Below, piece by piece: positions 23,370-42,344 of a DNA stretch of 64,000 nucleotides. Location of the stretch: the IMG/VR virus record IMGVR_UViG_3300033692_000022. The stretch is one strand, 5' to 3'. The number at the start of each line of letters is the position of its first letter. Position 1 is the first letter of the stretch. This DNA is from a virus (Duplodnaviria > Heunggongvirae > Uroviricota > Caudoviricetes). The notes under the pieces are model-generated. The model saw nothing but the letters and a program-made list of their open reading frames with translations. It did not search any database and had not been told where the DNA came from. The position numbers were made by a program, and so were the translations under genes.

Positions 23370-23383
23370 ACTAGGAGGCAGAA

Positions 23384-23791
23384 ATGAGTATATTAAATAA
23401 CTTACCCAACTGGAATGCACAGTCAGATAGGGTTGTAGAACCAGATAACGATAAGAAAGCAGCTGGGTGGAGGCTCGGTGAAGAGCCACCTCCTGGTTAC
23501 TTTAACTGGTTCTGGAATCTCGTATCCGATTCATTAAATATTTTAGATACACATAATCACGATGATAGATATTACACCAAAGGTTACTTTGATTCTCACG
23601 ATCATGACAGTTTATATTACAGAAAAGATTACATCGATTCTCACGAGCACGACGACAGATATTACACAAAAAATGATGTTAATAGTATGCTCGGGGCCAC
23701 CTATATTGAAAGCCCAACTGTTGGTAATATATTAGTATCAGACACCGAGCCAACTAATGCAGAAGAAAACGACATATGGATAAAGTTATAA
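23384..23791 (+). CDS. Short tail fiber protein: conserved N-terminal anchor domain plus HxHD-RYY histidine repeats
   Basis: LPNWNAQSDRVVEPDNDKKAAGWRLGEEPPPGYFNWFWNLVSDSLNILDTHNHDDRYYTK is shared with five other fiber genes. It also has repeats SHDHDSLYYRK and SHEHDDRYYTK. Confidence 0.45.
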   Translation: MSILNNLPNWNAQSDRVVEPDNDKKAAGWRLGEEPPPGYFNWFWNLVSDSLNILDTHNHDDRYYTKGYFDSHDHDSLYYRKDYIDSHEHDDRYYTKNDVNSMLGATYIESPTVGNILVSDTEPTNAEENDIWIKL

Positions 23792-23804
23792 AGGAGGCAG
23801 TAAA

Positions 23805-25667
23805 TTGGGATATATAACACCAGATAAATCACCGGGTATATACATGGACCCGATTACTGTCAACTTTAGTGTTGATAGCAGGGTAGTAAATATAGCAGAA
23901 ACTCAGGATGGCAGCAACCCAACAATAGCAAAATATATAGCATATGATAATCTAAACCCACCTAATCCATTCATAGCGACCGTACAGGACGGCAGGGGTA
24001 ATGTTCTGTTCGATGGTGGATTTCCAAAATACTACAATATGAGAGTAAATTCTTCCTGGACTTCATTTTCTCAACTTAATGATACATTTAAGTATTTTCA
24101 TAATGCTTTAGATTGGATAGCAAACGATGATAAGGTATCAGAAGGTAATCGTAAGATGTTATTTCTTGGTGATTCAAACCCTGGAGAATCTTACAACATC
24201 AAACAAACAGGCGGCAGTGATTTTAAAACATCTATAGAAACAATGTGTACTACTGGTAACTGGGACCCTACCTATCTGACAAGAGAAGATTTCAGCGGCG
24301 GCCAAATCGATTTAAGTTATGCTGATTTAGAGCCTTATGTTGGCGTATTCCTGATGTCGAGTAGGCATACATCTAATAGATATATAACTCAATCAACTGT
24401 AGATAATCTATTGGCTTTTAGAGAAGCCGGTAACGGTATGTTTATCATAACAGACCATGGTTCTAGTGCAGACAACGGTTTTTATAGAACTGCTAATTTC
24501 ATAGCTGAAGAACTTGGGGCTCAATTTTTAGGATATTATAATAGATCACCTGTTAATGTTGGTTTCTTAATAGATAACTACGGTAATCATCCTTTATGGT
24601 CTGGTATGGATAGGAGTGGATATGTCCACGCTGGAAGTTCGGAGTCTGAAATAATTGTAGATGAAACACCAACTACTACAACAGCAGACTCTCTTACTGT
24701 AAGTGAACAGGGTTTTAAGACAGCAAGATTCTTAATAGAGCTCGATACAGGAGAAAAGGTATTTGAAACATATTCCTACGGATTGAATGCTGGAGACCCT
24801 ATTACTTTCAATAACGATATTCAAAATGGAGAGCTTAAAATAGGATTCGGCAGAACTATAGATTTAGATTTCGATATAAATTTAGGAATAATGGACAGCG
24901 CTTCAGGGCTAGTAAGAAGGAACAGCGATGTAATAGCTCAGTGGTCAAAAGACAGCGGCGGAATGACAACAGAATGGTTTACCGAAAGTGGTAACAGTAC
25001 CATTAAGGTAGATGATGGGGACTCAATAAAGGTAGCCTTACAGTCTCCAGTCTATTATGCAGAGTCTTTTACTATTAATGCAGCACCTCGAACTTCGACA
25101 GCCATCGACATAAACCTCGAAGATAAGACAAGTAAATACATTTCACTAAGCTGGACCTATGATAGCAGGATAGAACTAGACCATCTCGAGCTTATCTTTT
25201 TAAAAAGCGACGGATCACAGATAGATATAGATGATGACGGTACATTAGAAGATAGGTTAAACCTCAATAAAAGCCTATCATTTAGTGCAAGTAATCTTGA
25301 GCCGGCAACAGAATATAAGTTCAAACTAAGAGTATATGATGTTAACGGCGGCAGTTTAGACAGCAGCTATTATACAGCTAAAACAAACGGAGTACTTAAG
25401 ATACTTGTCGATAATACCTACAAGATACCACGCAACGCTCTAGTAAAAAAAGGAACAGGCTGGTCGAATTTTACAACTCAAATAAAGAATAACGGAGAGT
25501 TTGAGGAAATCGACATAGGGCCTACGATACAAACTTCCATGTTTACTACTGACATGTGGACAGAGTTTTCAAAAGAGGTGCGGGCAATCCACCTGTTAGA
25601 TAATGACTCTGATCTATATGGCAGCAGCCTTGATATTATAGATGTAATAGACTCCTATGGAATATAG
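23805..25667 (+). CDS. Tail protein paralog A, part 1: N-terminal hydrolase-like domain (GDS / TDHG motifs), FN3 module, beta-rich region
   Basis: TTG start after ribosome-binding site AAGGAGGCAG. It is approximately 75% identical over its N-terminal 260 aa to the 27431 ORF. It contains LFLGDSNPGES and FIITDHGSSADNGF. Confidence 0.45.
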   Translation: MGYITPDKSPGIYMDPITVNFSVDSRVVNIAETQDGSNPTIAKYIAYDNLNPPNPFIATVQDGRGNVLFDGGFPKYYNMRVNSSWTSFSQLNDTFKYFHNALDWIANDDKVSEGNRKMLFLGDSNPGESYNIKQTGGSDFKTSIETMCTTGNWDPTYLTREDFSGGQIDLSYADLEPYVGVFLMSSRHTSNRYITQSTVDNLLAFREAGNGMFIITDHGSSADNGFYRTANFIAEELGAQFLGYYNRSPVNVGFLIDNYGNHPLWSGMDRSGYVHAGSSESEIIVDETPTTTTADSLTVSEQGFKTARFLIELDTGEKVFETYSYGLNAGDPITFNNDIQNGELKIGFGRTIDLDFDINLGIMDSASGLVRRNSDVIAQWSKDSGGMTTEWFTESGNSTIKVDDGDSIKVALQSPVYYAESFTINAAPRTSTAIDINLEDKTSKYISLSWTYDSRIELDHLELIFLKSDGSQIDIDDDGTLEDRLNLNKSLSFSASNLEPATEYKFKLRVYDVNGGSLDSSYYTAKTNGVLKILVDNTYKIPRNALVKKGTGWSNFTTQIKNNGEFEEIDIGPTIQTSMFTTDMWTEFSKEVRAIHLLDNDSDLYGSSLDIIDVIDSYGI

Positions 25668-26824
25668 GACACTGCAGACTTAATATAACAGAACCACCAC
25701 CTCTTGTAGCAAACGATGACTCATTTGAGATATACGAGGGTGGATATATAAATATTTATAAATCTCAGATGTTAGACAATGATTACGATGAAAGCGGGAA
25801 CGAACCAATCGAAATCATAGGTTTCTCTGGTGTTACTGGAGGAACACTAACCGAGTACGACAACTACATTAGATTCGATGTAACAAGTCAGGTAGGAGAA
25901 CCTGCAGAGTTTAAATATACAATAACTAACGCAGTAGGCATAGAAACTACAGCCTATGTAAAGTTAATTATTAAAAAGGGACTTATTGCAGGAATAGATA
26001 ATACTGATTCATATAAAGATATCGAAAAGACCATTCCTATTTCAACCCTCGACATAACAGACATTTCAGAAAACCCACCAATTAAGTTAATAGGTGTTAC
26101 AGATCCAAGCGGCGGAACAGTAACCTTTGACGATTATAACATCTATCTTACCTCAACAGCTGCGGCTGGCAGTAATATTTCATTCAATTATACAGTGCGA
26201 AATGATATTAATCTTACAGATACAGGAACTGTTAATGTGAAAGTTATGCCTACTCCTCAGATACAAACAGCTGATGATACATTCGAAGTTACCCAGGGTA
26301 ATCAGATATTGATTTCTAAATCTGGACTCACCAATAATGATACAGATGAAGGAGGATATTACCCACTAACAGTAACCAATGTATACAACGTAACAGGTGG
26401 AACACTTGATGTAAGCGGAGATACTATTACATTTACTTCTACAAGTCTTGCGGGAGAAGCCGCAGGTTTTAAGTATGATGTAGAAAACACTCAGGGCGTA
26501 ACTCAGACAGGAAATGTATATATCACTGTTAATCCACTTCCAGCCGTAGACTCCTTAATTTTTAGCGACGCACAAACAACCCAGGATAAGCTAAACGAAT
26601 ATACTCCTGATAGTATGCAGGACGTATTTACAAGCTGGTATAGATTCTCTCATCAAGGCGGGAATATACAGGTCAACCCTCTTACTATGTATGACGGCAC
26701 TACTCAATACGATTTATATAGCGAAAATATATGGAAGTACCACGCCGATGAAGATAGAATAGCCTGTCAGCAGAATACTCCTCAGCATGTTGGCTTTCTT
26801 CGCCGGGTGGAGATGATGACATGA
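25634..26824 (+). CDS. Tail protein paralog A, part 2, continuing part 1 in the −1 frame. The track ATG is at 25769.
   Basis: The frame is open from 25634 and encodes NIGHCRLNITEPPPLVANDDSFEIYEGG. This aligns to YIGHCEIKTSQTPNLVAMDDSFEVYEGG of the 28206 ORF, with no start codon upstream of 25769. Cadherin-like or Ig-like repeats follow. Confidence 0.45.
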   Translation, partial: YYRCNRLLWNIGHCRLNITEPPPLVANDDSFEIYEGGYINIYKSQMLDNDYDESGNEPIEIIGFSGVTGGTLTEYDNYIRFDVTSQVGEPAEFKYTITNAVGIETTAYVKLIIKKGLIAGIDNTDSYKDIEKTIPISTLDITDISENPPIKLIGVTDPSGGTVTFDDYNIYLTSTAAAGSNISFNYTVRNDINLTDTGTVNVKVMPTPQIQTADDTFEVTQGNQILISKSGLTNNDTDEGGYYPLTVTNVYNVTGGTLDVSGDTITFTSTSLAGEAAGFKYDVENTQGVTQTGNVYITVNPLPAVDSLIFSDAQTTQDKLNEYTPDSMQDVFTSWYRFSHQGGNIQVNPLTMYDGTTQYDLYSENIWKYHADEDRIACQQNTPQHVGFLRRVEMMT

Positions 26825-27411
26825 TCGGTATAGTTTTAGCCTATACTGAAACTTCTAATCCTTATGATGAACATACACTCATAGCTCAAAGAACTCACGG
26901 GGGGATAGGCGGAGGCGAATGGGCTATAATTTATAATAAATCAAAATCTGGGGATAGTGTGATAATAAACGATAGCATATCTGGTGATGATATAAGTGGG
27001 GGTTGGAGTGGAGATCGCACAAGAGTAAGAGCTGAGAGAGAAGGAAATATCATAAAAGTATATGCTTCTCCAATGAATTCAACTACTCTTGATCCAAATT
27101 CAATGTTCGAAATAGATTTAAGCTCAGATAGTAGACTCCACAAATTTATGGACGGAGGATCATACGGGTATTGTTGTTTATCACAGGACAGATCAACATT
27201 TACCGATATACAGTTCGAAGGTGGATTAGACAAATCCATAATCTTAGATATTGAAAATAATATAGTCTGGGAATATAGCTTCGAACAAAGCCAATGGATA
27301 GATACAGGAAGAACTATTCAGGACGAAATAGGATATGTAAGAGAGGTATATAATCCAAACACTGGTGATAGATACCTTGTTAAAGAAAACGAAATAATCA
27401 AAATGACTTAA
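26758..27411 (+). CDS. Tail protein paralog A, part 3, continuing part 2 in the −1 frame. The track ATG is at 26821.
   Basis: Upstream in the same frame, SPGGDDDMIGIVLAYTE aligns with SSNGDNDVIGLVIAFDRD of the 28206 ORF. The C-terminal YVREVYNPNTGDRYLVKENEIIKMT is nearly identical to the paralog B C-terminus. Confidence 0.45.
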   Translation, partial: NSLSAEYSSACWLSSPGGDDDMIGIVLAYTETSNPYDEHTLIAQRTHGGIGGGEWAIIYNKSKSGDSVIINDSISGDDISGGWSGDRTRVRAEREGNIIKVYASPMNSTTLDPNSMFEIDLSSDSRLHKFMDGGSYGYCCLSQDRSTFTDIQFEGGLDKSIILDIENNIVWEYSFEQSQWIDTGRTIQDEIGYVREVYNPNTGDRYLVKENEIIKMT

Positions 27412-27430
27412 GGAAAAGGAGGGGAATTTT

Positions 27431-28228
27431 ATGGGATACGTAATACCAGATAAACAACCTGGAATATATAAAGAACCATTTACTGTAGATTTTAATGTAG
27501 ATAGTAGTGTATCAAATGTAGTAGACACTCAAGATGGAAGCAATCCGACCATAGCAAAGTATATAGCATATGACAATTTAAACCCGCCAAATCCATTTAT
27601 AGCAACAGTTCAAGATGGTAAGGGTAATGTATTATTCGATGGTGGCTTCCCTAAGTACTATAATCACAAATGTGATACATCTTGGAGTTCGTTTTCCGAC
27701 CTTAATAACACCTTTAAGTATTTTTATAATGCTTTGAATTGGATAGCAAATGAAGAAAAAGTAGCTGAAGGGAATCGCAAAATACTTTTTATAGGAGATG
27801 CTATTCCAGGCGAGCCTTACAATATAAAAGAAACTGGCGGTAGTGATTTTAAAACATCAATAGAAACAATATGTAGAGTTGGGAATTGGAACCCTACTTA
27901 TAAGATAAGGACTGATTTTCCTAATAATCAAATAGATTTAAGCTATACAGACTTAGAACCTTATGTAGCGGTATTTCTAATGTCAAGTAGACACACTAGC
28001 ACTAAACATATCACAGATAGTACAGTAAATAACATGCTTGCCTTTAGAGAAGCAGGCAACGGTATATTCATGATTACCGATCATGGATCAAGTGCAGATA
28101 ATGGTTTTTATAAAACTGCTAATTACATTGCAGAAGAACTTGGTGCACACTTCATTGGTGATTATGATAGAACTCCAGTTAACGTAGGCTACCTTATCGA
28201 TAATTATGGCAACCATCCATTGTGGTGA
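27431..28228 (+). CDS. Tail protein paralog B, part 1 (hydrolase-like N-terminal domain)
   Basis: Ribosome-binding site AAGGAGGGGAATTTTATG. It matches paralog A residues 1–265 closely (IAKYIAYDNLNPPNPFIATVQDG identical). It ends at NYGNHPLW*, where paralog A continues. Confidence 0.45.
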   Translation: MGYVIPDKQPGIYKEPFTVDFNVDSSVSNVVDTQDGSNPTIAKYIAYDNLNPPNPFIATVQDGKGNVLFDGGFPKYYNHKCDTSWSSFSDLNNTFKYFYNALNWIANEEKVAEGNRKILFIGDAIPGEPYNIKETGGSDFKTSIETICRVGNWNPTYKIRTDFPNNQIDLSYTDLEPYVAVFLMSSRHTSTKHITDSTVNNMLAFREAGNGIFMITDHGSSADNGFYKTANYIAEELGAHFIGDYDRTPVNVGYLIDNYGNHPLW

Positions 28229-31200
28229 GACTCCTATATCTACCAGCACAGACCCTCTGGTAGTTGATCAGTCAGGCTATAAAACAGCAAGGTTTTTGAT
28301 AGAGCTAGACAATGGAGAAACTAAATTCGAAAGTTATTCTTATGGGTTAAATACTGAAGAGCCGATTGTATTTAATCACAGCCTAATAGATAATAAATTG
28401 GATTTAGGACTTAAGCGAGATTTCAATTTAGATTTCAGTATAGTACTAGGAGTGATGGACAGCGCCAACGGGTTTATTAAAAGAAATAACGAAGTAGTTG
28501 GCCAGTGGTCGAAAGACCAGACTTCTTTTGATAAGACCTGGTTTACCGATAGCGGCACCAACAATATTAAAGTAGAACTAGGAGATTTAATAGAAATAAC
28601 ATTAGAAGATCCTTTGTATTACAGTAAATCAATGACAATAGATGGTAAAGAGCCTATCTTAAATACGTCTCCGCAATCTAGTGGTAACTATGTGGCTCTT
28701 GAATGGGATGTTAGTGATGGCTCACAGGATTTCACATATATGCTTCACAAAAAGAAGTCCTCAGATAGTGTATTCCAAACTATACCAGCTAAAGAAAACC
28801 TTAAGATACTTAATGTATATCCAGAAAATGGGGTAAGTGAAACAATAACCTTCACAAACTGGAAAGGAGAAACTACGACAACCTTAAAATCTGCCTCCCT
28901 AAAGAAATGGATGGAAGAACCAAATAACACACATTCAAAAGGATGGGGTAAAGGCCTTATAGATGTCGATATAGTTTCATTACTGGACTTTAATAATTCA
29001 CCAGACAGTTATCTTAAGACTAATGGCAGTTATGACTATGATGTTGTAGTATTTGGAACCTGGGATTGTAATGGAGATTGCTCAAGCGGTGGAGATACTA
29101 GCGCAGCTGCGGCAGCAAGCATAGAAACTTTCATCAAGACGGGCAGGGGTGTTCTACTCGGTCATGATACATTACACAAAAACCATCCTAATTTCAATAG
29201 TCTTGTTAGTTATTTTAATGTTACTTTAGATACAACGGGTATAGGATATACAGAACTTGAAATAACTAAAAAAGGATTACTCACCAACTATCCCTGGTAT
29301 ATAGGAGATATCGGAGATAAACTATCTATTCCCATGGCACATGTAACCAATCAGATGGCGCATGGAGATGTATGGTTTAAATTTACCGATGACACCTGGG
29401 GTGGTTATGACTATGTTGCTAATGACCTAACAAGAAATTTTTATCTTACTACATGGAATAATACTGCCTTAATTCAGACCGGTCACAGTGATGCTCAGGC
29501 GACTTCTGATGAACAGAAACTACTTGCTAACACACTATTTTATCTAGGTCAGGTTACAACCGCAACTAGCTGGAATGATATGTCCGGGCAGGATCTCGCC
29601 GGGCCAGAAAAACCAGTCATAAATAACGTAAAAATAAACCAAGACACTAAGAAAATAGAAATAGATTACAGTTCTCCAAATGATAATGGAACCACATATG
29701 ACTACTACGTTACTGCAAAAGGTAGTGAAGGATTAACAACCCAAACCAACACTTCTACTTGTACTATAAAAACAAATATTGCCGGTTATTCAATATTGGT
29801 AGATGACAGTCCAAGTAGTGTGCCCAATAACGATATAAACACTACAGAAACTTCATATGATTTGGAACATGAAAAATATGATAATTTCTATGTCCATATT
29901 GCAGCAGTAGATAATGCAGGAAACATATCAAAAACCTCACACTATCATTATACAGACAATACCGCTCCTGATTTAGATTTAACACAAAAAATATCAGAGT
30001 GGACACCTACAGAAGAAACTATAGTTGCTGAAGCTACTGATATAGGGTCTGGGGTTAGCAGAATACAACTCCCTAACGGTGAGTGGGTTAATCAATCAAA
30101 AGTAGAATTTAAAGCCACATCAAATGGTGATTATACTTTCACTGCAGAAGATTATACCGGCAACAGAACAACAAAGACTATTACCGTATACGGAGTTGGA
30201 CCAGAAAGTAATCCATTAATAAATTTAAAAATAACAGAAGTTACAAGTAGTACCATAGACCTTAGATGGGAAATATCAGAAACCATAGATGTAGACTATA
30301 TAAATTTAATGTTCCTCAAAAAAGACGGAGAAGAGTTTAAAAATATAGATATTAATGGTGACGGCTCTATAGATGATTATCTAAATATAAACGATGCAAC
30401 TTCATACAGTGTTAATAAACTCGAGCCCAGAACAGAATATTACTTTAAAATAATAGTCTATGACAATGACCAAACTCAGATGAGCAGTGCTTTATTGTCG
30501 GCAAAAACAAAAGGGCTAATAAAGGTAAATAAGAATGGCAGTTTCAAAATAGCAAAAGATGTACTCGTTAAAAAGAATAATGACTGGGAGTCCTTTAGCG
30601 GTAAAATAAAGAAGGACGGTAAACAGGTTAAGGTAGATATAGGTACTACAATTAAAACAAATCTATACGAAGAAGATGTCTGGCCGGGCTTCGAAAAAGA
30701 AATAAGGGCCATTCACTTATTAGAAGATGATAGTGATATATATGGAGATACTGATCTTAATATTGTCGATATCAAAAACGTATACGGAGGGGATGCCGAA
30801 TTCGTAGGAAGCGATTCTCTGGTAGAAACATCAGTAAACTTTAGAAATAATGCTGAGATAGGAGAAACTGCTGGTTTTACTTATGTAGTAGAAAACTCCA
30901 GAGGTAGAAGATATATCGGGCATTGTGAAATAAAGACATCTCAAACTCCAAACTTAGTAGCAATGGATGACTCGTTTGAAGTTTATGAAGGCGGATTTGT
31001 TGATATATATAAGTCGCAAATACTAGCCAATGATTATGATACAGAAAATAATACTCCAATAGAAATAGTAGATGTATTCGATGCAAAAGGTGGGACTCCT
31101 ACTGTATATGATAATTATATTAGATTCCAGGTGAATGATGAAATTGGAGATCCTGCTCAATTTAGATATACAATCAGAAACTCAATAGGTCAAGAAACAA

Positions 31201-32696
31201 CTGCATACGTAAAATTACTAATCAAAAGAGGATTAAAAGCTGAAGATCAAACTCTAACTGGTTATAAAGGAAAGGAAAAATTAATTCCTCTATCGCAGTT
31301 AAATATTACAGACCTATCAGAGTCGCCTCCATTCGAAATCACAGAGATTAAAGATACAGCAAATGGCAGCTTGATAAGTTATAACAAAGATGAAATAAGA
31401 TTTGTACCAACTGGAGAGATCGGCGAGGAAGCTAGTTTCGTATATCAAGTCAAAAATCAAACAGAATTAATTGATGAAGCCAAAATTACTCTAACCATAG
31501 AAGAGCCACCACAGATAACCTGTAATGACGATTTATTTGAAGTCACTCAAGGAAAAGAACTTATAATATCAAAATCAAATTTAAGCGATAATGATACAGA
31601 CTCGAAGGGGTTATACCCTTTAAGTGTAACTTCAGTTAAAGAACCTATTGGATGTAGTTTGAGCACTGATGGAGATACCATAATAGTAACACCAATAGTA
31701 AATGCAATGGAAGAATGTGGGTTCAAATATGAAGTAGAAAATACCGAAGGGATAAAAGGTAGTGGTAATGTGTTTATTAATGTTAAGCCATTACCAGAAA
31801 TAGAAGCTCTAATTTACGAGAATCAAAACGAAATAGATAATGAAATCGAGAATATCGTACCTCCTACAATGAAAAATATATTTAATCAGTGGGATAGATT
31901 CGATGGGGATAATTTATACACAGCAGGCTCTAGTTATGATGGCAACGCCTCATCCTGGCAATTTAGTGAAAACCCGGACAGAGTGATACAACCCGTAAAT
32001 GTGGCGCCCTATAATGGGTTTTTAAGCAACAAAGAAGTAGACTTTTATAGTCACGAAGCAACGCTAACTTCTAGCAATGGGGATAATGATGTTATTGGTC
32101 TTGTTATAGCTTTTGATAGAGATAACAATAAAAATCATACGTTAAGTGTAATAATATCAAAAGGTGATCCTATACCTAAAAGCGGTTACGGTATTGTATA
32201 TGACTATGATTATACTCATGGTGGAAGAATTCATGATAGAGATTGGATTGTTGAAGAAAAAAATGTTATATCTACCGCTGCTGGGTGGAGTGGTAACAAA
32301 ATCAGAGTAAGAGTAGATAGAGATAAAGATATAATAAAGGTATATTGCTCTGGTTGGAATAATTTGTCAAGCTATAAGATAGAGTCAGAGATAGTTATAG
32401 ATTTAAATAGTGATCCAAGACTAGAACGGTTTAAAGGAAAAAAGAAATATGGCTACGGGAACTACTCTCAAGCCAATACCACATATTTAGATATAGATTT
32501 CAAAGGTGGTATTAACTACACTAAGATGTATAACTTCGAAACAGAAACTGTATATAAATATAATATAGATAGCAATTCTTGGGAGGCGACGAATACTACT
32601 ATCCAGGATGAATTAGGGTATGTAAGAGAAGTGGTTAACCCGAAAACAGGAGAAAGATATCTTATCAAAGAAAACGAAATAATTAAAATGACATAG
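28206..32696 (+). CDS. Tail protein paralog B, part 2 (1496 aa): beta-rich region, a ThuA/GATase1-like domain, Ig-like and FN3 modules, cadherin-like repeats and a C-terminal lectin-like domain
   Basis: Contains YDVVVFGTWDC...GRGVLLGHDTLH (GATase1/ThuA-like), EATDIGSGVSRIQLPNGEWV...AEDYTGNRTTKTITV (Ig-like module) and an FN3 module with DINGDGSIDD. The C-terminus matches the 26821 ORF. Confidence 0.5.
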   Translation: MATIHCGETPISTSTDPLVVDQSGYKTARFLIELDNGETKFESYSYGLNTEEPIVFNHSLIDNKLDLGLKRDFNLDFSIVLGVMDSANGFIKRNNEVVGQWSKDQTSFDKTWFTDSGTNNIKVELGDLIEITLEDPLYYSKSMTIDGKEPILNTSPQSSGNYVALEWDVSDGSQDFTYMLHKKKSSDSVFQTIPAKENLKILNVYPENGVSETITFTNWKGETTTTLKSASLKKWMEEPNNTHSKGWGKGLIDVDIVSLLDFNNSPDSYLKTNGSYDYDVVVFGTWDCNGDCSSGGDTSAAAAASIETFIKTGRGVLLGHDTLHKNHPNFNSLVSYFNVTLDTTGIGYTELEITKKGLLTNYPWYIGDIGDKLSIPMAHVTNQMAHGDVWFKFTDDTWGGYDYVANDLTRNFYLTTWNNTALIQTGHSDAQATSDEQKLLANTLFYLGQVTTATSWNDMSGQDLAGPEKPVINNVKINQDTKKIEIDYSSPNDNGTTYDYYVTAKGSEGLTTQTNTSTCTIKTNIAGYSILVDDSPSSVPNNDINTTETSYDLEHEKYDNFYVHIAAVDNAGNISKTSHYHYTDNTAPDLDLTQKISEWTPTEETIVAEATDIGSGVSRIQLPNGEWVNQSKVEFKATSNGDYTFTAEDYTGNRTTKTITVYGVGPESNPLINLKITEVTSSTIDLRWEISETIDVDYINLMFLKKDGEEFKNIDINGDGSIDDYLNINDATSYSVNKLEPRTEYYFKIIVYDNDQTQMSSALLSAKTKGLIKVNKNGSFKIAKDVLVKKNNDWESFSGKIKKDGKQVKVDIGTTIKTNLYEEDVWPGFEKEIRAIHLLEDDSDIYGDTDLNIVDIKNVYGGDAEFVGSDSLVETSVNFRNNAEIGETAGFTYVVENSRGRRYIGHCEIKTSQTPNLVAMDDSFEVYEGGFVDIYKSQILANDYDTENNTPIEIVDVFDAKGGTPTVYDNYIRFQVNDEIGDPAQFRYTIRNSIGQETTAYVKLLIKRGLKAEDQTLTGYKGKEKLIPLSQLNITDLSESPPFEITEIKDTANGSLISYNKDEIRFVPTGEIGEEASFVYQVKNQTELIDEAKITLTIEEPPQITCNDDLFEVTQGKELIISKSNLSDNDTDSKGLYPLSVTSVKEPIGCSLSTDGDTIIVTPIVNAMEECGFKYEVENTEGIKGSGNVFINVKPLPEIEALIYENQNEIDNEIENIVPPTMKNIFNQWDRFDGDNLYTAGSSYDGNASSWQFSENPDRVIQPVNVAPYNGFLSNKEVDFYSHEATLTSSNGDNDVIGLVIAFDRDNNKNHTLSVIISKGDPIPKSGYGIVYDYDYTHGGRIHDRDWIVEEKNVISTAAGWSGNKIRVRVDRDKDIIKVYCSGWNNLSSYKIESEIVIDLNSDPRLERFKGKKKYGYGNYSQANTTYLDIDFKGGINYTKMYNFETETVYKYNIDSNSWEATNTTIQDELGYVREVVNPKTGERYLIKENEIIKMT

Positions 32697-32707
32697 GAGG
32701 TTATTAA

Positions 32708-33325
32708 ATGTCGATACTAGGAGAATTACCAGATTGGGATGCGCCGTCTAATAAAATAATAGAACCAGATATAACTAAAAAAACTAGTGGCTGGAATCCA
32801 GGGGAAAGGCCTCCAGCCTACTATTTTAATTGGTTCTGGACGAGAGTATCAAACGCTCTAAAAATTTTAGACGCACACAATCACGATAGTTTGTATTATA
32901 AAAAATCCGAGATAGACAGCAAAATACAGCAATCAGTAGCAAGCAATGAAGACTTGGTAGAATCAATGTACCCAATAGGATCAATTTATATTAATGCAAC
33001 AAACAATACCAATCCTGGCACTTTATTAGGCTTTGGAACTTGGGAAAGATTTGGTGAAGGTAGAGTATTAGTCAGCCAAGATAGCACAGATGCGGATTTT
33101 GATGCAATTGGCGAAACAGGCGGAGAAAAAACACATCAATTAACTGAATCAGAAATGCCATCGCATAATCACAATTATACCAGAGTATCGGGAGGTTATG
33201 GAGGTGGTGGTCTTAATGTAGATGGCAGCACAAGTACAGTACCTACTAGTCTAGCTGGCGGCGATTCTCCCCATAACAACCTTCAACCATACATCACAGT
33301 TTATATGTGGGTAAGAATATCATAA
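32708..33325 (+). CDS. Tail fiber with conserved N-terminal anchor and a C-terminal phage tail-collar-like domain
   Basis: N-terminal LPDWDAPSNKIIEPD...GWNPGERPPAYYFNWFWTRVSNALKILDAHNHDSLYY. The C-terminal PIGSIYINATNNTNPGTLLGFGTWERFGEGRVLV...GGEKTHQLTESEMPSHNHNY...PHNNLQPYITVYMWVRI fits the Collar (PF07484-like) pattern. Confidence 0.55.
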   Translation: MSILGELPDWDAPSNKIIEPDITKKTSGWNPGERPPAYYFNWFWTRVSNALKILDAHNHDSLYYKKSEIDSKIQQSVASNEDLVESMYPIGSIYINATNNTNPGTLLGFGTWERFGEGRVLVSQDSTDADFDAIGETGGEKTHQLTESEMPSHNHNYTRVSGGYGGGGLNVDGSTSTVPTSLAGGDSPHNNLQPYITVYMWVRIS

Positions 33326-33355
33326 AAACTAAATTAAGAAAGAGGAAGTGATAAA

Positions 33356-34129
33356 ATGGATAGCTTTTATCTTCCAGAATGGACCCCACCAGCCAATATG
33401 CTGGTGGAACCAGAGATTGAAAGAAGAAACCTAGGATGGGGCGCTGGAGAATCACCACCTGCAGGTGTGTTTAACTGGTTTTGGAATAAGACATATAATG
33501 CTTTAAAAGTAATAAGAGACCACGATCATGATGCAAGATATTATACTAGAATGGAAATGGGAAATATTATTTCCAATATGGCCCCAAAGGAACATGAACA
33601 CGAAGGTTCAGATATTATATCTAAAGTATCAGAGGCAGCAAATGCAGACGAGGCAACAAACTCACAAACACTTCAGGGCAGACCACCAGAACAGTTTGCC
33701 GACAATGTACACTACCACGATGATAGATACTACACAGAAGACGAGATCGATCAAAAGCTAGGCTTCAAATCCAACACTGGCCACACTCACAACTACGCGC
33801 CAGCAGAACACATCCATGATGATATATATAAAACTGAATCAGAGATAATTAATCTTGCCAAAGCAGTTAGCGTAGAAGATATATCAATAATCCAGGGGAC
33901 AATAGAAGACGGAGAGAAACTACCATTACCAAACGGCTACACTGAAAGTCAATGCAGTTGGGTAGTATCACCAAGACAGGTGGCCACAACCGGTAGAACT
34001 GACGGATATGACGATGGTAAGGGAATAAGATTCTATGCAGATAATGATCGTAACGTTATTGCTAGATTCGATGGGCTTGGTGAAGTTTCTGGTACTGCTA
34101 ACTTTATAGTTATAGGAGTTAAAAAATAA
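33356..34129 (+). CDS. Tail fiber with conserved N-terminal anchor and His-rich HxHD-RYY repeats
   Basis: N-terminal LPEWTPPANMLVEPE...GWGAGESPPAGVFNWFWNKTYNALKVIRDHDHDARYYTR. Further repeats KEHEHEGSD, VHYHDDRYYTEDEIDQKL, GHTHNYAPAEHIHDDIYKTESEI. Confidence 0.5.
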   Translation: MDSFYLPEWTPPANMLVEPEIERRNLGWGAGESPPAGVFNWFWNKTYNALKVIRDHDHDARYYTRMEMGNIISNMAPKEHEHEGSDIISKVSEAANADEATNSQTLQGRPPEQFADNVHYHDDRYYTEDEIDQKLGFKSNTGHTHNYAPAEHIHDDIYKTESEIINLAKAVSVEDISIIQGTIEDGEKLPLPNGYTESQCSWVVSPRQVATTGRTDGYDDGKGIRFYADNDRNVIARFDGLGEVSGTANFIVIGVKK

Positions 34130-34144
34130 ATAGGGGGAATTAGA

Positions 34145-34582
34145 ATGTATGTACTAATTAATTTAGATAAAAAATCTATATATGGCTTTTCTTCTAGTAA
34201 GCCAAACATAAAAGATCTTATTTCAATCAATAGAACAGCCGTAGAATATACTGGAGAACTCAGTTATGACTCGCTAAGGCCAGTTATTGATAATGGTGAC
34301 GTAATATCGGTAAAAGAAAAGACTAAATATCAGTTAAGTGCGTCTACAACTCAAATAAATGCTGGCGGCGAAGATAGAACATTTGTAAACATCAAAGTAG
34401 ATGATGGAGACGAAGATCAGGTAATGTTTAAAGTAAATGATGAAAAAGTAGGTACTGTATATACTGAGGGAGGCACAACCGAACTCGAATTTACAGCTGA
34501 TAGTCCCGGTATCTACACAATAACAGCAGAAAGTATTAATAAAAGGTATATCAGTAACTCAATAGACATAGAGGTGATATAA
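34145..34582 (+). CDS. Small Ig-like (Big_2-type) domain protein
   Basis: TFVNIKVDDGDEDQVMFKVNDEKVGTVYTEGGTTELEFTADSPGIYTITAES is a Big_2-like beta-sandwich pattern. Confidence 0.35.
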   Translation: MYVLINLDKKSIYGFSSSKPNIKDLISINRTAVEYTGELSYDSLRPVIDNGDVISVKEKTKYQLSASTTQINAGGEDRTFVNIKVDDGDEDQVMFKVNDEKVGTVYTEGGTTELEFTADSPGIYTITAESINKRYISNSIDIEVI

Positions 34583-34704
34583 TGAGCGGCCTTAAATTTA
34601 ATGGCAAGAATCCTAAAGAAAAGACCGACAAAGAAAGAATAACTGAACTCGAAGAAAAGATAGCAAAATTGGAAAAAATCATAGAAGAAAATACAACTAA
34701 TTAG
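34582..34704 (+). CDS. Small coiled-coil protein (40 aa), absent from the ORF track
   Basis: The ATG overlaps the upstream stop (TAATG) and is preceded by GAGGTGA. The product is MSGLKFNGKNPKEKTDKERITELEEKIAKLEKIIEENTTN. Confidence 0.25.
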   Translation: MSGLKFNGKNPKEKTDKERITELEEKIAKLEKIIEENTTN

Positions 34705-34715
34705 GAGGTTTTTAG

Positions 34716-35543
34716 ATGTCTTTTTTAGACCAACTACCAGAATGGAATGCACCAACAATGAAAATTCACACCCCAACTCCCAAGAAACAGGAAGAGGGTT
34801 GGAATATAGATGAAAGACCTCCTGCCGGTTATTTTAACTGGTTTTGGACAACTGTGTCTGACGCATTAAGAATCTTAGATACTCACAATCATGACTACAA
34901 GTATGTAATTAGAGGGGAAGACAATGTAATATCTTCTGAGATGATACAAAAAAACATCATCAATGAAGAACATTTTAGAGAAAATATAGACTTTAAACAG
35001 TTTATACCAGAAATAGACAGCCACCAGCATGATAACTATTTACAAAAAGACGGAGACACCATGAGTGGCCCTCTAAGACTTGGCGATAATTCAACACTAG
35101 TTAAAGAAACACCAAATGGAGATCACATTATAATAGATGAAAACGGTAGAGTATGGAACTCTGTTTACAATGATATCGCAGAACTTTATGAAGCTGACCC
35201 AAAAGTCAAAGAAGGCCAGGTACTAATCTGGGACGGAGAAAAAGTAAGAACAACATTTAAAGCAGAAGACGAGAGAGTTATAGGAGTATATTCAAATACA
35301 TTTGGATACTGTCTTGGAGGACAGCCAACTACTATTAATAAAGTTCCTATAGGTATTAGCGGTAAAGTCAAGACAAAGGTTAAAGGCCCAGTTAGACCAG
35401 GAGACCTCCTGACTACTTCAGAAATACCCGGGGTTGCTAAAAAGTCCGAGAATAAAAAACTTGGAACAATATTTGGTAAAGCCATGGAAGACATAGAAAA
35501 AGATAAGATTAAGACAATCTGGGTATTCATTGCGGTGATATAA
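34716..35543 (+). CDS. Tail fiber with conserved N-terminal anchor and a DGDTMSGPL fiber motif
   Basis: N-terminal LPEWNAPTMKIHTP...GWNIDERPPAGYFNWFWTTVSDALRILDTHNHDYKY. SHQHDNYLQKDGDTMSGPLRLGD is a recurrent phage fiber motif. Confidence 0.5.
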   Translation: MSFLDQLPEWNAPTMKIHTPTPKKQEEGWNIDERPPAGYFNWFWTTVSDALRILDTHNHDYKYVIRGEDNVISSEMIQKNIINEEHFRENIDFKQFIPEIDSHQHDNYLQKDGDTMSGPLRLGDNSTLVKETPNGDHIIIDENGRVWNSVYNDIAELYEADPKVKEGQVLIWDGEKVRTTFKAEDERVIGVYSNTFGYCLGGQPTTINKVPIGISGKVKTKVKGPVRPGDLLTTSEIPGVAKKSENKKLGTIFGKAMEDIEKDKIKTIWVFIAVI

Positions 35544-36374
35544 ATGGGATTATTAAATAATATACCGGGCTGGAATGCCCCAGAAGAAAAAGTAGTAGAG
35601 CCAAAACAGGTAAAAAAAGATAGCGGCTGGAATCCAGGAGAAAGACCACCCGCATATGTATTTAACTGGATGTGGAACATGGTATCAAATGCCCTAGAAA
35701 CACTGAGCAATCACTTACATGATGATAGGTACTCAAAGAAAGACCACACTCACAGCGTGACTGAAGTATCTGGTAAGATAGATAATGCAGCTTATGCTGA
35801 TAACGCAGACAAGTTAGATGGTAGAGACGCCTCGGATTTTGCCTCAAGTTCACACTCCCACCCCTACTCTCCAGAAAACCACACCCATGATGGAAGATAC
35901 TATAAAGAATCTGAAGTCAACAACCTTATAAATAACCTACAAAATGAAGTAAACAATCTTAAAAACCAATCTATGGATCTTGAAAATGTTTATCCAGTAG
36001 GATCGCTATATTTTAATGCAGTCAGCGGTCAAAACCCTGAAACTCTTTTAGGTTTTGGTAAGTGGCAGCGCTTTTCTAAAGGTAGAGTATTAGTAGGATT
36101 AGATGAAAGTGATGGTAATTTTAACGGGTTACAGGAAAGAGGAGGAGCAAAAACACACAGACTTACCGATGCAGAAATGCCAAAACACAAACATATCTCG
36201 CCTTATGGTGATACTTGGAACACTCCATGGGGGACATATGGTAACTGGAAAACAGGTTCTGGGGATTCAGATAGTGACAACCACTACCACTGGACAAGTC
36301 CAGCAGGAGGAGATAAGCCACACAACAACCTGCAGCCTTATATCACGGTCTATATTTGGCGCAGAACACAGTAA
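35544..36374 (+). CDS. Tail fiber with conserved N-terminal anchor, HxH repeats and a tail-collar-like C-terminal domain
   Basis: N-terminal IPGWNAPEEKVVEPK...GWNPGERPPAYVFNWMWNMVSNALETLSNHLHDDRYSKKDHTH. The C-terminal PVGSLYFNAVSGQNPETLLGFGKWQRFSKGRVLV...GGAKTHRLTDAEMPKHKHI...PHNNLQPYITVYIWRRT is paralogous to the 32708 C-terminus. Confidence 0.55.
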   Translation: MGLLNNIPGWNAPEEKVVEPKQVKKDSGWNPGERPPAYVFNWMWNMVSNALETLSNHLHDDRYSKKDHTHSVTEVSGKIDNAAYADNADKLDGRDASDFASSSHSHPYSPENHTHDGRYYKESEVNNLINNLQNEVNNLKNQSMDLENVYPVGSLYFNAVSGQNPETLLGFGKWQRFSKGRVLVGLDESDGNFNGLQERGGAKTHRLTDAEMPKHKHISPYGDTWNTPWGTYGNWKTGSGDSDSDNHYHWTSPAGGDKPHNNLQPYITVYIWRRTQ

Positions 36375-36387
36375 AGGAGGTGCTTAG

Positions 36388-38367
36388 ATGCCACTAACAG
36401 AAACAGAAGTAGAAAATAGGATTATAGAGTTAGAGTCGGCTCTCGACTTACACAATCATATAACATCGTTTAGTGATGGTAGTGGTGGCAATCCGATACA
36501 AAGTAACGCATTAGATTCTGAGCTTAAAACAGAGATAGAAACTAATATCTCTCACAGAGATGTAGTCGACGCAAATCCACATCAAACAAAAGCCCACCAG
36601 ATACAGATAACAGCAGGAGATTATGCTTCACATAATATCCAACAGGCACTAGATATAATAAAGTCTAAAAGCAAAAATGACTATAGCGAGTTAGAAGAGT
36701 TAAGCAATGCCCTTGCTAATACGATTAAGACTGGCGATGCAGTAACTGATTGGACAATAGAAGAGTCATCTATTAAAAACAACAGAGCTTTATTTAATAA
36801 GATAGAATCTCATAATCATGATTCAAGATATACGAAACCATTTGAGCTAGAAAATGAGATTAACAGTCACTCTGAAAGCAACGCTCATGATGAAAGATAT
36901 TACACTAAAAACTATTTAGACAGTGAATTTGGAACAAAATCTGATAAGACACATCTTCATGATGCAATCTATCTTAGAAGACCAGAACTTGATGACTTAT
37001 ATTTTAATGTAGCCGATGACGAATTAAATATCGACCTAGAAATCAATAAGACATCTCCTAAGCTGACATTAAATGATGAATCAACCAATGGTAAGCTGGT
37101 AGAGATAACCTCCACAGATGAAAGATTCCTGCTTAAGATGAACGGCAATAATAAGCTGGACCTTCAAAATGATTTAGTAGTGGATATACCTGGTAATATA
37201 ATTCTTAGAGACACTCCAGTATCACTCGAAGGACACGTGCATGATAATAGATATTATCAAAAATATCAGGTAGAAGACTTACTATCAACTAAATCGGAAC
37301 AAGGCCATATTCATGATCATATATATTACAGACAGTCAAAGGTTCATAGCCTATTGGATGAGAAGACAGATTTAGATCATAAACACGAAGATATTTATTA
37401 CAATAAAACAGCAGCAGATAATAGGTTTGTTAATAATACCGTAGACACAATAGATGAATTAACAGTAAATGACAAACTGAACCTTAACGACAGGGCATAT
37501 TTTGATGAAAGTGGTTTGATTTTTAAAAGCTACAATTCAACAATAAGTATCGATAATGATAGTGATAATAATTTAGGTCTCAATATTAGGTCTGGAAACT
37601 TAGATCAAATATATCTCAATACGGATAAAGTAAAAGTAAGAAGTAATCTTGAAGTTGTAGGAGATATTCATCTAGGCCATAAAATAAATGGAGTCAAAAT
37701 AGAAGATTTTAAAGCAGAATATGATTTCCACGCATCAAAAGATGATGCTCACCATGAAAAATATACTGACCGAGAAGCAAGGGTCGCAATATATAATGAT
37801 GGCAACCATTATGAAATGGCAGACCATGTGCATAATCACAACACCCTTTATTATAAAAAAGAGTATATAAATTCAGCTCTATCCCAGAAGGCCGATAAAG
37901 ATCATGACCATGATTCAATGTATATGAGAATAGAAGAGGTAATAGAAAGACTAGATAATAAATCAGACAAGGGTCATCTCCACGATACAAGATACTATAC
38001 TAAAGATGAGATGAATCAACAGATAACCCTAATCGGAGATGAACTCCAGCTTAAGTCTGATAAGGGTCATGATCATAATGAAACATATTATACTCAGGCT
38101 GAAGTGGACCAGGAGATAAAAGATAAGACAGGTAATAGTGCCTATGTTGTAAGTGGTGAAATAATAACAGACATCAATGGTAGAGCAAAATTACCAATAC
38201 CATCCGGCTTTGATAGGCACGAGTGCCATTATATGGCCTCTGCTGGCCAGAATACTTTAGTTCCTTATTCCAGCTCTGGCGTGGAGATAAACAGAAATAC
38301 TGGAGATATACAAGTAAGTCCAAGTAGTGTAGATGCAGTAAACTATATGGTAATTGGAATCAGGTAG
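36388..38367 (+). CDS. Long fiber protein (659 aa) built from approximately 12 HxHD-x-RYY-TK histidine repeats
   Basis: Repeats include SHNHDSRYTK, AHDERYYTKNY, THLHDAIYLRR, GHVHDNRYYQKY, GHIHDHIYYRQS, DHKHEDIYYNK, HVHNHNTLYYKKEY, DHDHDSMYMRIEE, GHLHDTRYYTKDE, GHDHNETYYTQAE. Confidence 0.5.
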   Translation: MPLTETEVENRIIELESALDLHNHITSFSDGSGGNPIQSNALDSELKTEIETNISHRDVVDANPHQTKAHQIQITAGDYASHNIQQALDIIKSKSKNDYSELEELSNALANTIKTGDAVTDWTIEESSIKNNRALFNKIESHNHDSRYTKPFELENEINSHSESNAHDERYYTKNYLDSEFGTKSDKTHLHDAIYLRRPELDDLYFNVADDELNIDLEINKTSPKLTLNDESTNGKLVEITSTDERFLLKMNGNNKLDLQNDLVVDIPGNIILRDTPVSLEGHVHDNRYYQKYQVEDLLSTKSEQGHIHDHIYYRQSKVHSLLDEKTDLDHKHEDIYYNKTAADNRFVNNTVDTIDELTVNDKLNLNDRAYFDESGLIFKSYNSTISIDNDSDNNLGLNIRSGNLDQIYLNTDKVKVRSNLEVVGDIHLGHKINGVKIEDFKAEYDFHASKDDAHHEKYTDREARVAIYNDGNHYEMADHVHNHNTLYYKKEYINSALSQKADKDHDHDSMYMRIEEVIERLDNKSDKGHLHDTRYYTKDEMNQQITLIGDELQLKSDKGHDHNETYYTQAEVDQEIKDKTGNSAYVVSGEIITDINGRAKLPIPSGFDRHECHYMASAGQNTLVPYSSSGVEINRNTGDIQVSPSSVDAVNYMVIGIR

Positions 38368-38385
38368 GAGGAAAGGAGGATTAAT

Positions 38386-38844
38386 ATGTATTACTTATTA
38401 GACAAAGACACATTAGAAATTAAAGCCTCCTTAAGAGGTAAACCAAACATGGAGGAGATTGAAAAAAATAATATAACAGCAATTAATTCATCATATCAAT
38501 ATTCTCCTAGAAAACTTAAGGCCATTGAAAAAGATGGAGAAATAAATATAGAGTTCAGACCAGAAATCAAAGCAAAAATAAAAAATACAGGAAACTATAT
38601 AAAAGTAGATGCAATGGTTAGAAGAGAAGACGGAACGGTTAATCAAGAAATAAATGATGAACTTACTATTACAGTAGAAAAATATGAAGACAAGGAGATA
38701 ATTACAGAAAAAACACTAATCATAAATTCTGGAGAGGGTTTCAAAAACTTTAACATTGGAGAAACTGGAAGATTTGTGGTTAGAGTTAAGCACGATAAGT
38801 TTAGTGAAGCCTCTGATTATATATCTGTTAAGGAGGTTATGTAA
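38386..38844 (+). CDS. Hypothetical virion protein
   Basis: 152-aa ORF with ribosome-binding site GGAGGAAAGGAGGATTAATATG. Confidence 0.3.
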   Translation: MYYLLDKDTLEIKASLRGKPNMEEIEKNNITAINSSYQYSPRKLKAIEKDGEINIEFRPEIKAKIKNTGNYIKVDAMVRREDGTVNQEINDELTITVEKYEDKEIITEKTLIINSGEGFKNFNIGETGRFVVRVKHDKFSEASDYISVKEVM

Positions 38845-39452
38845 TGCCAAAAATAGTAAAAAAAGCAGATGGAACATATGAAATAAGAAAAACTGAATTC
38901 GAGATAGAAGTTGAAAATAATATAAAAAATCTATGGGAAACTGTTGAACTAAATAATGAGGAATCAATAAAAAGAGATGAAGAACTTGAAGAGTTAATAA
39001 TAAAAAACACAGATGAATTAAGAAGCTCATTAGATAAAGAAATAGCAGATAGAGAAGAAGACATATCTGAAATAAATAATAAAATAGATAATCAAACAAA
39101 TACTATAAATGCCGAGATAAACAGAATAGGAATAAAACTTGATAATGAAATAAGAAATAGCCTATCTGAAGCTGAAAGGTTAGACCAAAGGATAACTGAT
39201 GAAGCAAATAAAAGATACAATAGAGACTTAGAGATAGAAGAAAGTATAAATAACTTCAAAAGTCAGTTTGATTATGAAATAGACCGTCTAGATGGAGACA
39301 TAGAAAATATAGATAGGATAAATTCTTCTTTAAATCAAGTTCTCAATGAAAAAATGGAAATAATGGTAGTATCAGAACAAATGAGAAATATAATAGTTTC
39401 ACTAGAAGAACCAGTAGATGCAGAAGAGAATGACCTATGGGTTATAGCTTAA
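38844..39452 (+). CDS. Coiled-coil protein
   Basis: 202 aa, highly charged with heptad periodicity (EELEELIIKNTDELRSSLDKEIADREEDISEINNKIDNQ). Confidence 0.3.
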   Translation: MPKIVKKADGTYEIRKTEFEIEVENNIKNLWETVELNNEESIKRDEELEELIIKNTDELRSSLDKEIADREEDISEINNKIDNQTNTINAEINRIGIKLDNEIRNSLSEAERLDQRITDEANKRYNRDLEIEESINNFKSQFDYEIDRLDGDIENIDRINSSLNQVLNEKMEIMVVSEQMRNIIVSLEEPVDAEENDLWVIA

Positions 39453-42334: not shown

Positions 42335-42344
42335 GAGGTATAAA

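Follow-up and report, generated by a model that had tools for sequence, protein, structure and literature searches.

A Common N-terminal Module in Five Tail Fibre-Type Genes of a Metagenomic Jumbo Myophage: Family, Predicted Baseplate Docking and History of the Copies

Introduction

Why would a single phage genome encode the same short N-terminus several times, each time followed by a different protein body? The question is raised by a 64,000-nucleotide stretch of DNA from a Caudoviricetes virus (IMG/VR record IMGVR_UViG_3300033692_000022), referred to here as the window, in which fibre-type genes lying between positions 23,384 and 36,374 begin alike and end differently. A preliminary description of this DNA had claimed that six tail fibre genes share one anchor. 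Here, we report that the common N-terminus, hereafter the module, is carried by five genes and belongs to a widespread family of fibre N-termini, for which docking on the baseplate is the best-supported function. Genes are designated by the position of their first nucleotide and are collected in Table 1.

Five Genes Share One N-terminal Module

The open reading frames (ORFs) of the window form a long series of plus-strand genes, all co-oriented, and five of them (23384, 32708, 33356, 34716 and 35544) open with the module motif. In the alignment the module started at residue 1 in all five proteins, and copies 2-5 showed 43-59% identity to the first copy over the first 66 amino acids (aa). Eighteen columns were invariant across the five copies (M1, P8, W10, P20, G28, W29, E33, P35, P36, F40, N41, W42, W44, L51, H57, H59, D60 and Y63), in agreement with the motif as it had been written out beforehand. 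The preliminary description had suggested aligning about the first 60 aa; the similarity was found to extend over 66 aa and was not compositional, while the full-length alignment of the five proteins broke down past about residue 65. Pairwise BLASTP comparisons among the five returned E-values of 1e-16 to 1e-30 for the common part, showing that the resemblance of the N-termini is not due to chance. Chance or compositional similarity was thus ruled out by the BLASTP values, as it was by those of the profile searches that follow.

A profile hidden Markov model (HMM) built from the five sequences and run with all filters off on the six frames of the 64-kb window detected exactly five copies, with E-values of 1e-34 to 1e-39. 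No sixth copy was found in this six-frame scan, the next best match having an E-value of 0.09. A broader 50-sequence profile recovered the same five copies from the window and a regular-expression scan agreed. The shared anchor therefore stands for the five genes listed above, and the six-frame scans contradict a sixth. The other genes that were thought to carry the module in part do not carry it, as 36388 and 17544 have in common with the five only the HxHDxRYY repeat, which follows the module. The common N-terminus of the five genes is real.

The Module Belongs to a Widespread Family of Fibre N-termini

Searches of the module against Pfam and NCBIfam returned no model. Among the PHROG profiles it corresponded to the N-terminus of the 'tail fiber protein' families 7389 and 2126, which were matched by all five proteins with E-values of 7e-9 to 8e-11, residues ~1-60 aligning with profile positions ~3-66. 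An exhaustive HMMER search of 1.84 billion representatives then retrieved 1582 clusters, defined at 50% identity, at E<=1e-3. Of the 150 best clusters, 149 had the match starting no later than residue 18, in proteins ranging from 63 to 1906 aa. The exception among these 150, P0010, aligned only to the HxHD tail of the profile, and profile matches of this type are inflated by the HxHD repeat. A word-indexed protein search with the module profile gave a single match, which reflects a limit of the index. These data indicate that the module is a widespread fibre N-terminal domain joined to very different bodies.

Cultured phages were searched by tblastn, which returned one module per genome in Aeribacillus phage AP45, Bacillus phages Sam112/Sam46, D6E, Pd_22F and vB_EauM-23. 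Looking for the same N-terminus in other phages had been proposed at the outset, and the tblastn search found it there. In AP45, Sam112 and D6E the sole copy is the annotated gpH-like tail fibre gene lying directly after the Baseplate_J gene and the I-like/DUF2612 wedge gene. In P2-type baseplates this gene position is that of the fibre whose N-terminus binds the wedge. The small Firmicute myophages (AP45, Sam112/Sam46 and D6E; PHROG 7389/2126) thus resemble the window in bearing the module at the start of a tail fibre, with 37-54% identity by tblastn and PHROG E-values of 1e-9 to 1e-11. They differ from it in having one copy after the J- and I-like genes, whereas the window has five, located far from the wedge genes and with short and diverse distal parts.

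A single copy was the rule outside the lineage of Bacillus phage 0305phi8-36, to which the window is related as described below: one copy occurred in 14 of 14 such loci (AP45, three IMG/VR contigs, three JGI contigs and seven contigs of metagenome-assembled genomes (MAGs), the MAGs being mostly Clostridia). A genome scan with a narrow alignment gave nine loci, all from MAGs and mainly Clostridia, and the module was detected in seven, each time as a single copy. Scans of IMG/VR gave three loci through peptide patterns and one through a degenerate DNA pattern, numbers too small for estimating how frequent multi-copy genomes are.

Predicted Structure and Docking Function

The fold of the module was modelled with AlphaFold2 (AF2) on the 32708 protein, using a 100-sequence alignment. 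The predicted local distance difference test score (pLDDT) was 87-97 at residues 1-50, and the collar part of the protein was poorly modelled. The module is predicted to consist of extended loops with a short helix at residues 22-27 and a long helix at residues 37-57. Foldseek comparison with the PDB gave 9cuy_a, the modelled N-terminal 90 residues, 3-92, of the short tail fibre of phage PhiTE, as the top match (probability 0.93, target-normalised template modelling (TM) score 0.51, root-mean-square deviation (rmsd) 3.7 A, E 0.35). A diverse profile of 50 modules, searched against 177,635 PDB sequences, returned one match, residues 28-66 of the same PhiTE 'Short tail fiber', with an E-value of 0.0021. 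The five-sequence profile found nothing in the PDB at E<=10, so that only the broadened profile reached PhiTE.

Cryo-electron microscopy has shown that the N-terminal region of the PhiTE short tail fibre is a trimeric globular joint attached to baseplate wedge 1; a coiled coil follows the joint, and each of the six wedge protomers contains one wedge 1 and two wedge 2 chains (PMC11972413). The short tail fibre of this Pectobacterium myophage (PDB 9cuy/9mjn) resembles the module in its N-terminal loops and in a helix leading into a coiled coil. It differs in having only ~16% identity, in being the single such fibre of its phage, whose other fibre has a different N-terminus, and in the Gram-negative host.

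The module model was also compared with BFVD, where it matched gp49 of Brochothrix phage A9 (D9J0J6, 745 aa) over 60 columns at 2.4 A, with a probability of 1.00 and 27% identity. This match suggests that the predicted plug occurs in SPO1-like phages too.

The remote homology to PhiTE and the synteny after J- and I-like wedge genes in the single-copy relatives together support a docking role, in line with the preliminary description, which had spoken of a conserved baseplate-docking module. A function as baseplate plug is therefore the best-supported one, with two independent weak signals falling on the same PhiTE chain in addition to the synteny, the homology being remote. The module can be described as a ~60-aa handle defined by its sequence (P-W, E-P, G-W, E-x-P-P and F-N-W are invariant) for the attachment of fibres in many Firmicute myophages and prophages, and its family is now tentatively tied to a solved baseplate complex, that of PhiTE.

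Relatives of the Phage, Age of the Copies and Exchange of Distal Parts

Comparison of positions 23000-36500 with 50,697 phage records by megablast gave no match. Across the window, PHROG matches comprised baseplate wedge, numerous 'virion structural protein' families, and primase and DnaB-like helicase. The 828-aa protein encoded at 39848 showed 29-31% identity to KLEB27-3 and to ORF171 of Bacillus phage 0305phi8-36; these two phages are jumbo myophages of ~217 kb. These matches place the window in a jumbo myophage of metagenomic origin, a distant relative of 0305phi8-36. The window derives from the public contig ENA ERZ27245728 k141_29228 (202,621 bp; L003), and the fibre cluster is 100% identical in three further assemblies. 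Samples SRR5852467 and SRR34913713 also contain the phage.

Related contigs carry the module in several copies. Two are present in L019, a 120-kb contig whose genes are arranged in the same order, and the Ga0136556/Ga0136558 contigs (L013/L017, L018 and L021) have at least four, comprising orthologues of 23384, 33356 and 34716 together with a gene at the 35544 position. The module was found neither in the syntenic 45 kb of 0305phi8-36 by HMM scan nor in its genome at the level of tblastn. Orthologous modules were 83, 65, 65 and 78% identical, and paralogous modules 43-63% within the window and 38-63% over all non-orthologous pairs of the matrix. The non-module parts of the orthologues, with 65-81% identity, were conserved to the same degree as the modules. 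For instance, the 23384 orthologue P0004 shows 83% identity in the module and the same synteny in L013-L017, ahead of a giant gene, and the 33356 orthologue in L018 is 65% identical in the module and 71% in the remainder. Since orthologues are closer than paralogues and the non-module parts are equally conserved, the duplications are older than the divergence of the related phages. The five-copy set is thus an old one in which each copy has been kept. In L018 a single giant gene is directly followed by the 33356 orthologue, so that 32708 and the second giant gene represent an extra duplication in the window phage.

At 13348-14946 of L019 a 532-aa fibre lacking the module was found, whose C-terminal 185 aa are 43% identical to the C-terminal part of 34716 (E 7e-46) and whose N-terminal part resembles 17544/16639. 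The relative in L021/L012 bears at the 35544 position a different collar-type C-terminus, with 32% identity versus 58% in the module. In the window itself, the C-terminal ends of 33356 and 36388 are alike, as are those of 23384 and 38844. These observations, together with the gene order in L018, point to domain shuffling, in which distal modules are exchanged among fibres, including between different anchors; the swappable tips of the preliminary description are thereby upheld.

Repeated paralogous domains have been proposed as a 'virion anchorage system' of 0305phi8-36 (Hardies et al. 2007, PMC2147016). The paralogue families a, b and c of that phage belong to the same lineage and likewise provide a repeated paralogous domain for the attachment of diverse fused domains, but their anchor domains are other than the window module. 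Several receptor-binding proteins (RBPs) per virion, with a constant N-terminal anchor and variable tips, are an established principle in other phages (e.g., PMC6872550, PMC11414711 and PMC10253068). The phages with multiple RBPs (Klebsiella KP32-type phages, the jumbo phages phiKp24/RaK2/phiK64-1, Ackermannviridae with the tailspike proteins TSP1-4, and phi92) share with the window clustered fibre or spike genes with a conserved N-terminal anchor and variable C-termini. They differ in their T7 gp17-like or T4 gp10 XD anchors, their distal depolymerases and their Gram-negative hosts. In the five proteins Pfam detected no anchor of the T7 gp17 type or T4 gp10 XD and no depolymerase or tailspike beta-helix, giving only the Gp10 C-terminal domain, in two of them. 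What is new here is the anchor family itself, which is widespread and uncurated, its remote link with the PhiTE joint and the fact that a jumbo phage of the 0305phi8-36 lineage has expanded it five-fold.

Distal Domains of the Five Proteins

In the 23384 protein the module (aa 1-60) precedes three copies of the HxHDxxYY repeat, and the protein closes with the short motif EPTNAEENDIWIKL. Over the final 24 aa it shares 54% identity with the end of 38844. The gene lies directly upstream of a giant gene with immunoglobulin (Ig)/cadherin-like domains. This protein probably serves as an adaptor or stub and not as a receptor-binding protein of the classical kind. Not all five proteins are necessarily receptor binders, as one of 135 aa is probably too short.

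In 32708 the module is followed by a short helix and a collar/Gp10_C domain at aa 84-204. This domain (PF21939) was matched by 32708 with an E-value of 1.6e-33 and 117 bits and by 35544 with 1.8e-31 and 110 bits, the cut-off being 27; it also matched PDB 2fkk, the C-terminal domain of T4 gp10 (E 1.3e-12). Likeness to T4 gp10 extends to this one domain, at the ends of 32708 and 35544, whereas the rest of gp10 is not present in the window proteins. In T4, Gp10_C is an attachment domain. The 35544 protein reaches its collar/Gp10_C domain through HxH repeats and a coiled coil, and the start of its gene overlaps the stop of gene 4.

The 33356 protein shows the module, an HxH-repeat shaft and a C-terminal domain of ~85 aa resembling the end of 36388. 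The 34716 protein has the module, a DGDTMSGPL segment and a beta-rich C-terminal domain, which matched Peptidase_G2 (PF11962, the phi29 gp12-type autoprocessing chaperone) with 22.2 bits and an E-value of 1.1e-4, under the cut-off of 25. A word-indexed search with this C-terminal part gave three homologues, and three of eight homologues matched Peptidase_G2, weakly. The AF2 model of 34716, built on a 6-sequence alignment, had a pLDDT of 40 and was unusable. No enzymatic or beta-helix domain was found by Pfam in any of the five proteins. The C-terminal classes that had been assigned from the DNA are recovered for the most part, with collar domains in 32708 and 35544, HxH repeats in 23384 and 33356 and DGDTMSGPL in 34716; the HxH class has to be enlarged, since these repeats also occur in 35544 and 36388.

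Two short elements recur around these genes. The repeat HxHD(x)RYY(T/K)K occupies 12 sites between 23552 and 38094, distributed over 23384, 33356, 35544 and 36388. Its match to PTR, the 'phage tail repeat' of Pfam, is weak, and it is reminiscent of the HxH shafts of T4 fibres, which bind metal. A C-terminal motif, …EP..AEEND.W…, ends 23384 (23720-23791) and 38844 (39381-39452) and, more loosely, 17544 (18990-19064), and may be a second common interaction element.

Proposed Role of the Five Fibres and Alternative Explanations

We consider it fairly probable that the window represents that part of a ~203-kb jumbo myophage's late operon which is devoted to baseplate and fibres, and that it encodes five fibre proteins with a wedge-docking plug and differing distal modules. 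The five co-oriented genes would encode fibre-type proteins, presumably trimeric, all of which would be assembled together as virion components. Each plug would be built of two loops (P-x-W, E-P, K-K, G-W and G-E-x-P-P) and, after them, a long helix (F-N-W-F-W...L). As homology to the short tail fibre of PhiTE suggests, three copies would wrap into a globular joint fitting the periphery of the baseplate wedge, and the long helix would then nucleate a coiled-coil or HxH shaft. The distal modules would be two collar/Gp10_C knobs, HxH shafts with a small C-terminal domain and a chaperone-like partner gene, a domain with weak similarity to that of phi29 gp12, and the 135-aa stub. In this lineage the one gpH-like fibre gene that simple myophages possess would have been duplicated two to five times, with shuffling of the distal domains, so that one virion design could carry receptor binders and probably adaptors for other appendages. 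The five-fold expansion would show how a jumbo phage turns such a lone gpH-type fibre into an apparatus with many appendages, and the module would mark, for engineering purposes, a boundary where distal domains can be exchanged.

Several points weigh against this interpretation. The link to PhiTE is remote, with an HMM E-value of 0.002 over 39 residues, 16% identity and a Foldseek E-value of 0.35 that is not significant alone, and the binding partner of the module may have changed. The module genes do not adjoin the J-like wedge gene as in the single-copy relatives: this gene lies at 3721-4539, and the module genes, starting from 23384 and 32708, are 19-31 kb downstream. As the module is missing from 0305phi8-36, it is not part of the core baseplate of the lineage. 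Finally, the window has one J-like gene and one candidate wedge-1 gene, neither with a paralogue, for five kinds of fibre. Wedge-protein paralogues offering several sockets were sought in the window and none was found, and the protein encoded at 4635-6035, the candidate wedge 1, had no recognisable family match.

How five plugs would be accommodated leaves three possibilities, namely distinct sockets on jumbo-specific baseplate proteins, of which the loop signatures described below give a hint, competition for the same site, and a hierarchy with the stub and the Gp10_C proteins as adaptors. The last of these refines the proposed docking of all five more than it opposes it, and we regard it as a possible, though tentative, account: some of the five would bind receptors and others would anchor further appendages, so that the 23384 stub might hold the neighbouring giant Ig/cadherin-like proteins and the two Gp10_C proteins might be branch points for 36388, 17544 and 38844, which lack the module. 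The stub measures no more than 135 aa, a giant gene invariably comes after it and after its orthologues, and its C-terminal motif recurs at the ends of 38844 and 17544; moreover, 32708 and 35544 match the C-terminal domain of T4 gp10, a baseplate connector, and several fibres of the operon have no module. T4 gp10 holds gp12. However, collar-type domains are also common as receptor-binding tips and, to our knowledge, the gp10 domains that serve branching in the tailspike systems of Ackermannviridae are not the C-terminal one. Competition for one site appears rather doubtful to us. Under this scheme five kinds of trimer would fit the same six (or twelve) wedge sites and be incorporated stochastically, giving mosaic virions or a mixed population as a bet-hedging of host range, as would agree with the unduplicated J-like and candidate wedge-1 genes and with the universally conserved residues that all five copies have in common. 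The paralogue-specific loop signatures are nevertheless kept between orthologues (e.g., GWRLGEEPPPGY, GWNIDERPPAGY, GWGAGESPPAGV and GWNPGERPPAYV), which suggests that each copy has its own environment, and jumbo baseplates contain many additional proteins as possible sites. A reading of the N-terminus as folding or trimerisation nucleus, or as tag for a common assembly chaperone, instead of a virion attachment site, is unlikely. It would suit the AF2 model, in which the module finishes with a long helix from which a coiled coil would begin, and the small chaperone-like genes found after some fibres; on the other hand, the corresponding region contacts the wedge in the one solved homologue, PhiTE, and the module sits at the extreme N-terminus in nearly all matches examined (149 of the 150 best clusters). 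Chaperones of phage fibres, including intramolecular ones, generally act on C-terminal parts.

The preliminary description had also offered a reservoir for fibre switching. In such a scheme a single gene would be in use at a time and tips would be exchanged by recombination or inversion, as in the Mu Gin/P1 Cin systems or with diversity-generating retroelements. Only the clustering of genes with a common 5' part speaks for such a store, and we consider it extremely improbable. The DNA coding for the modules is 60-75% identical, without any long exact stretch, and long or near-identical repeats are lacking; nine inverted repeats of 18-23 nt and 77-89% complementarity in 16.5 kb correspond to the chance level. 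All the genes lie on one strand, and each has an ATG and a Shine-Dalgarno sequence of the GGAGG type to itself. The window ORFs examined included neither a recombinase nor a reverse transcriptase, and related phages have a conserved orthologue of each paralogue. A promoter and terminator scan gave no more sites than shuffled sequence and is therefore uninformative on the structure of the operon. The region has the look of a single late operon whose genes are translated independently, not of a cassette store.

Returning to the proposed docking of five plugs, a more daring form of it, which we hold to be improbable though worth stating, is that one family of sites in a putatively Gram-positive-infecting jumbo phage takes five anciently diverged plugs, with loop residues addressing each to its own position or with plugs competing and so producing mosaic virions. 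If true, this would amount to a 'socket and plug' system that is programmable and serves a hyperbranched adsorption apparatus. It would draw on an uncurated family of more than 1500 clusters, which could be put to use in redirecting the fibres of Firmicute phages and tailocins to new targets.

Gene Neighbourhood and Integrity of the Window

The features discussed above are listed in Table 1 together with the neighbouring genes.

Table 1. Coordinates of the module genes and of other features of the window.
Feature	Position	Strand	Length	Remarks
Module gene 1	23384..23791	+	135 aa	ORF listing, alignment, six-frame HMM scan
Module gene 2	32708..33325	+	205 aa	ORF listing, alignment, six-frame HMM scan
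Module gene 3	33356..34129	+	257 aa	ORF listing, alignment, six-frame HMM scan
Module gene 4	34716..35543	+	275 aa	ORF listing, alignment, six-frame HMM scan
Module gene 5	35544..36374	+	276 aa	ORF listing, alignment, six-frame HMM scan
Baseplate_J wedge protein (P2 gpJ / T4 gp6-type)	3721..4539	+		Presumed part of the docking platform
Gene after J-like gene, candidate wedge-1 (gpI/gp7-position) partner of the module	4635..6035	+		Inferred from gene order only
Fibre without module	17544..19064	+	506 aa	Coiled-coil repeats, HHHD...DGDEMTGDL, similar C-terminal motif
Two paralogous giant Ig/cadherin/fn3-like virion genes	23805..32696	+		Between module genes 1 and 2
Small protein downstream of gene 3	34145..34582	+	145 aa	Weak Ig-like matches; paralogue of 38386
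Fibre without module	36388..38367	+	659 aa	Many HxHDxRYY repeats; C-terminal end like module gene 3
Small protein downstream of 36388	38386..38844	+	152 aa	Paralogue of 34145
Coiled-coil protein without module	38844..39452	+	202 aa	Last 24 aa 54% identical to C-terminal end of gene 1

The integrity of the window was assessed against the public contig mentioned above, to which it is 100% identical apart from short deletions. Compared with that contig the window lacks 54 nt (at 23276/23277), 124 nt (25661/25662), 46 nt (~26793/26794) and 61 nt (28226/28227), and ~52 nt more are probably missing near 22830-22994. No microhomology was found at the deletion junctions. The deletions split ORFs that are called single in the ENA record (1464, 1258 and 1775 aa): the giant genes appear as five ORFs in the window and as intact ORFs of 1258 and 1775 aa in the public contig. 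The five module genes are untouched.

The giant genes show a segmental duplication, 23805-27411 versus 27431-32696, in which the N-terminal 265 aa are 77% identical and later parts 41-48%. A further arrangement that occurs twice is that of a fibre followed by a small protein: at 33356-34582 and 36388-38844, fibres with related C-terminal ends are each followed by a paralogous protein of ~150 aa (25% identity, N-terminal MY.L.DK). The same arrangement of fibre and small protein was found in the relative L019, and 34145 and 38386 may be assembly or tip partners of the fibres. Between 34145 and 34716, a 40-aa ORF (34582-34704) is called as a gene in all public assemblies.

The structural operon also contains a stand-alone staphylococcal-nuclease gene (SNase, PF00565) at 39470-39835, after the fibre genes and ahead of those for the large virion proteins. 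The latter, encoded at 39848-46393, are three consecutive proteins of 828, 674 and 675 aa that are distant paralogues of one another and correspond to ORF171 of 0305phi8-36 and its neighbours.

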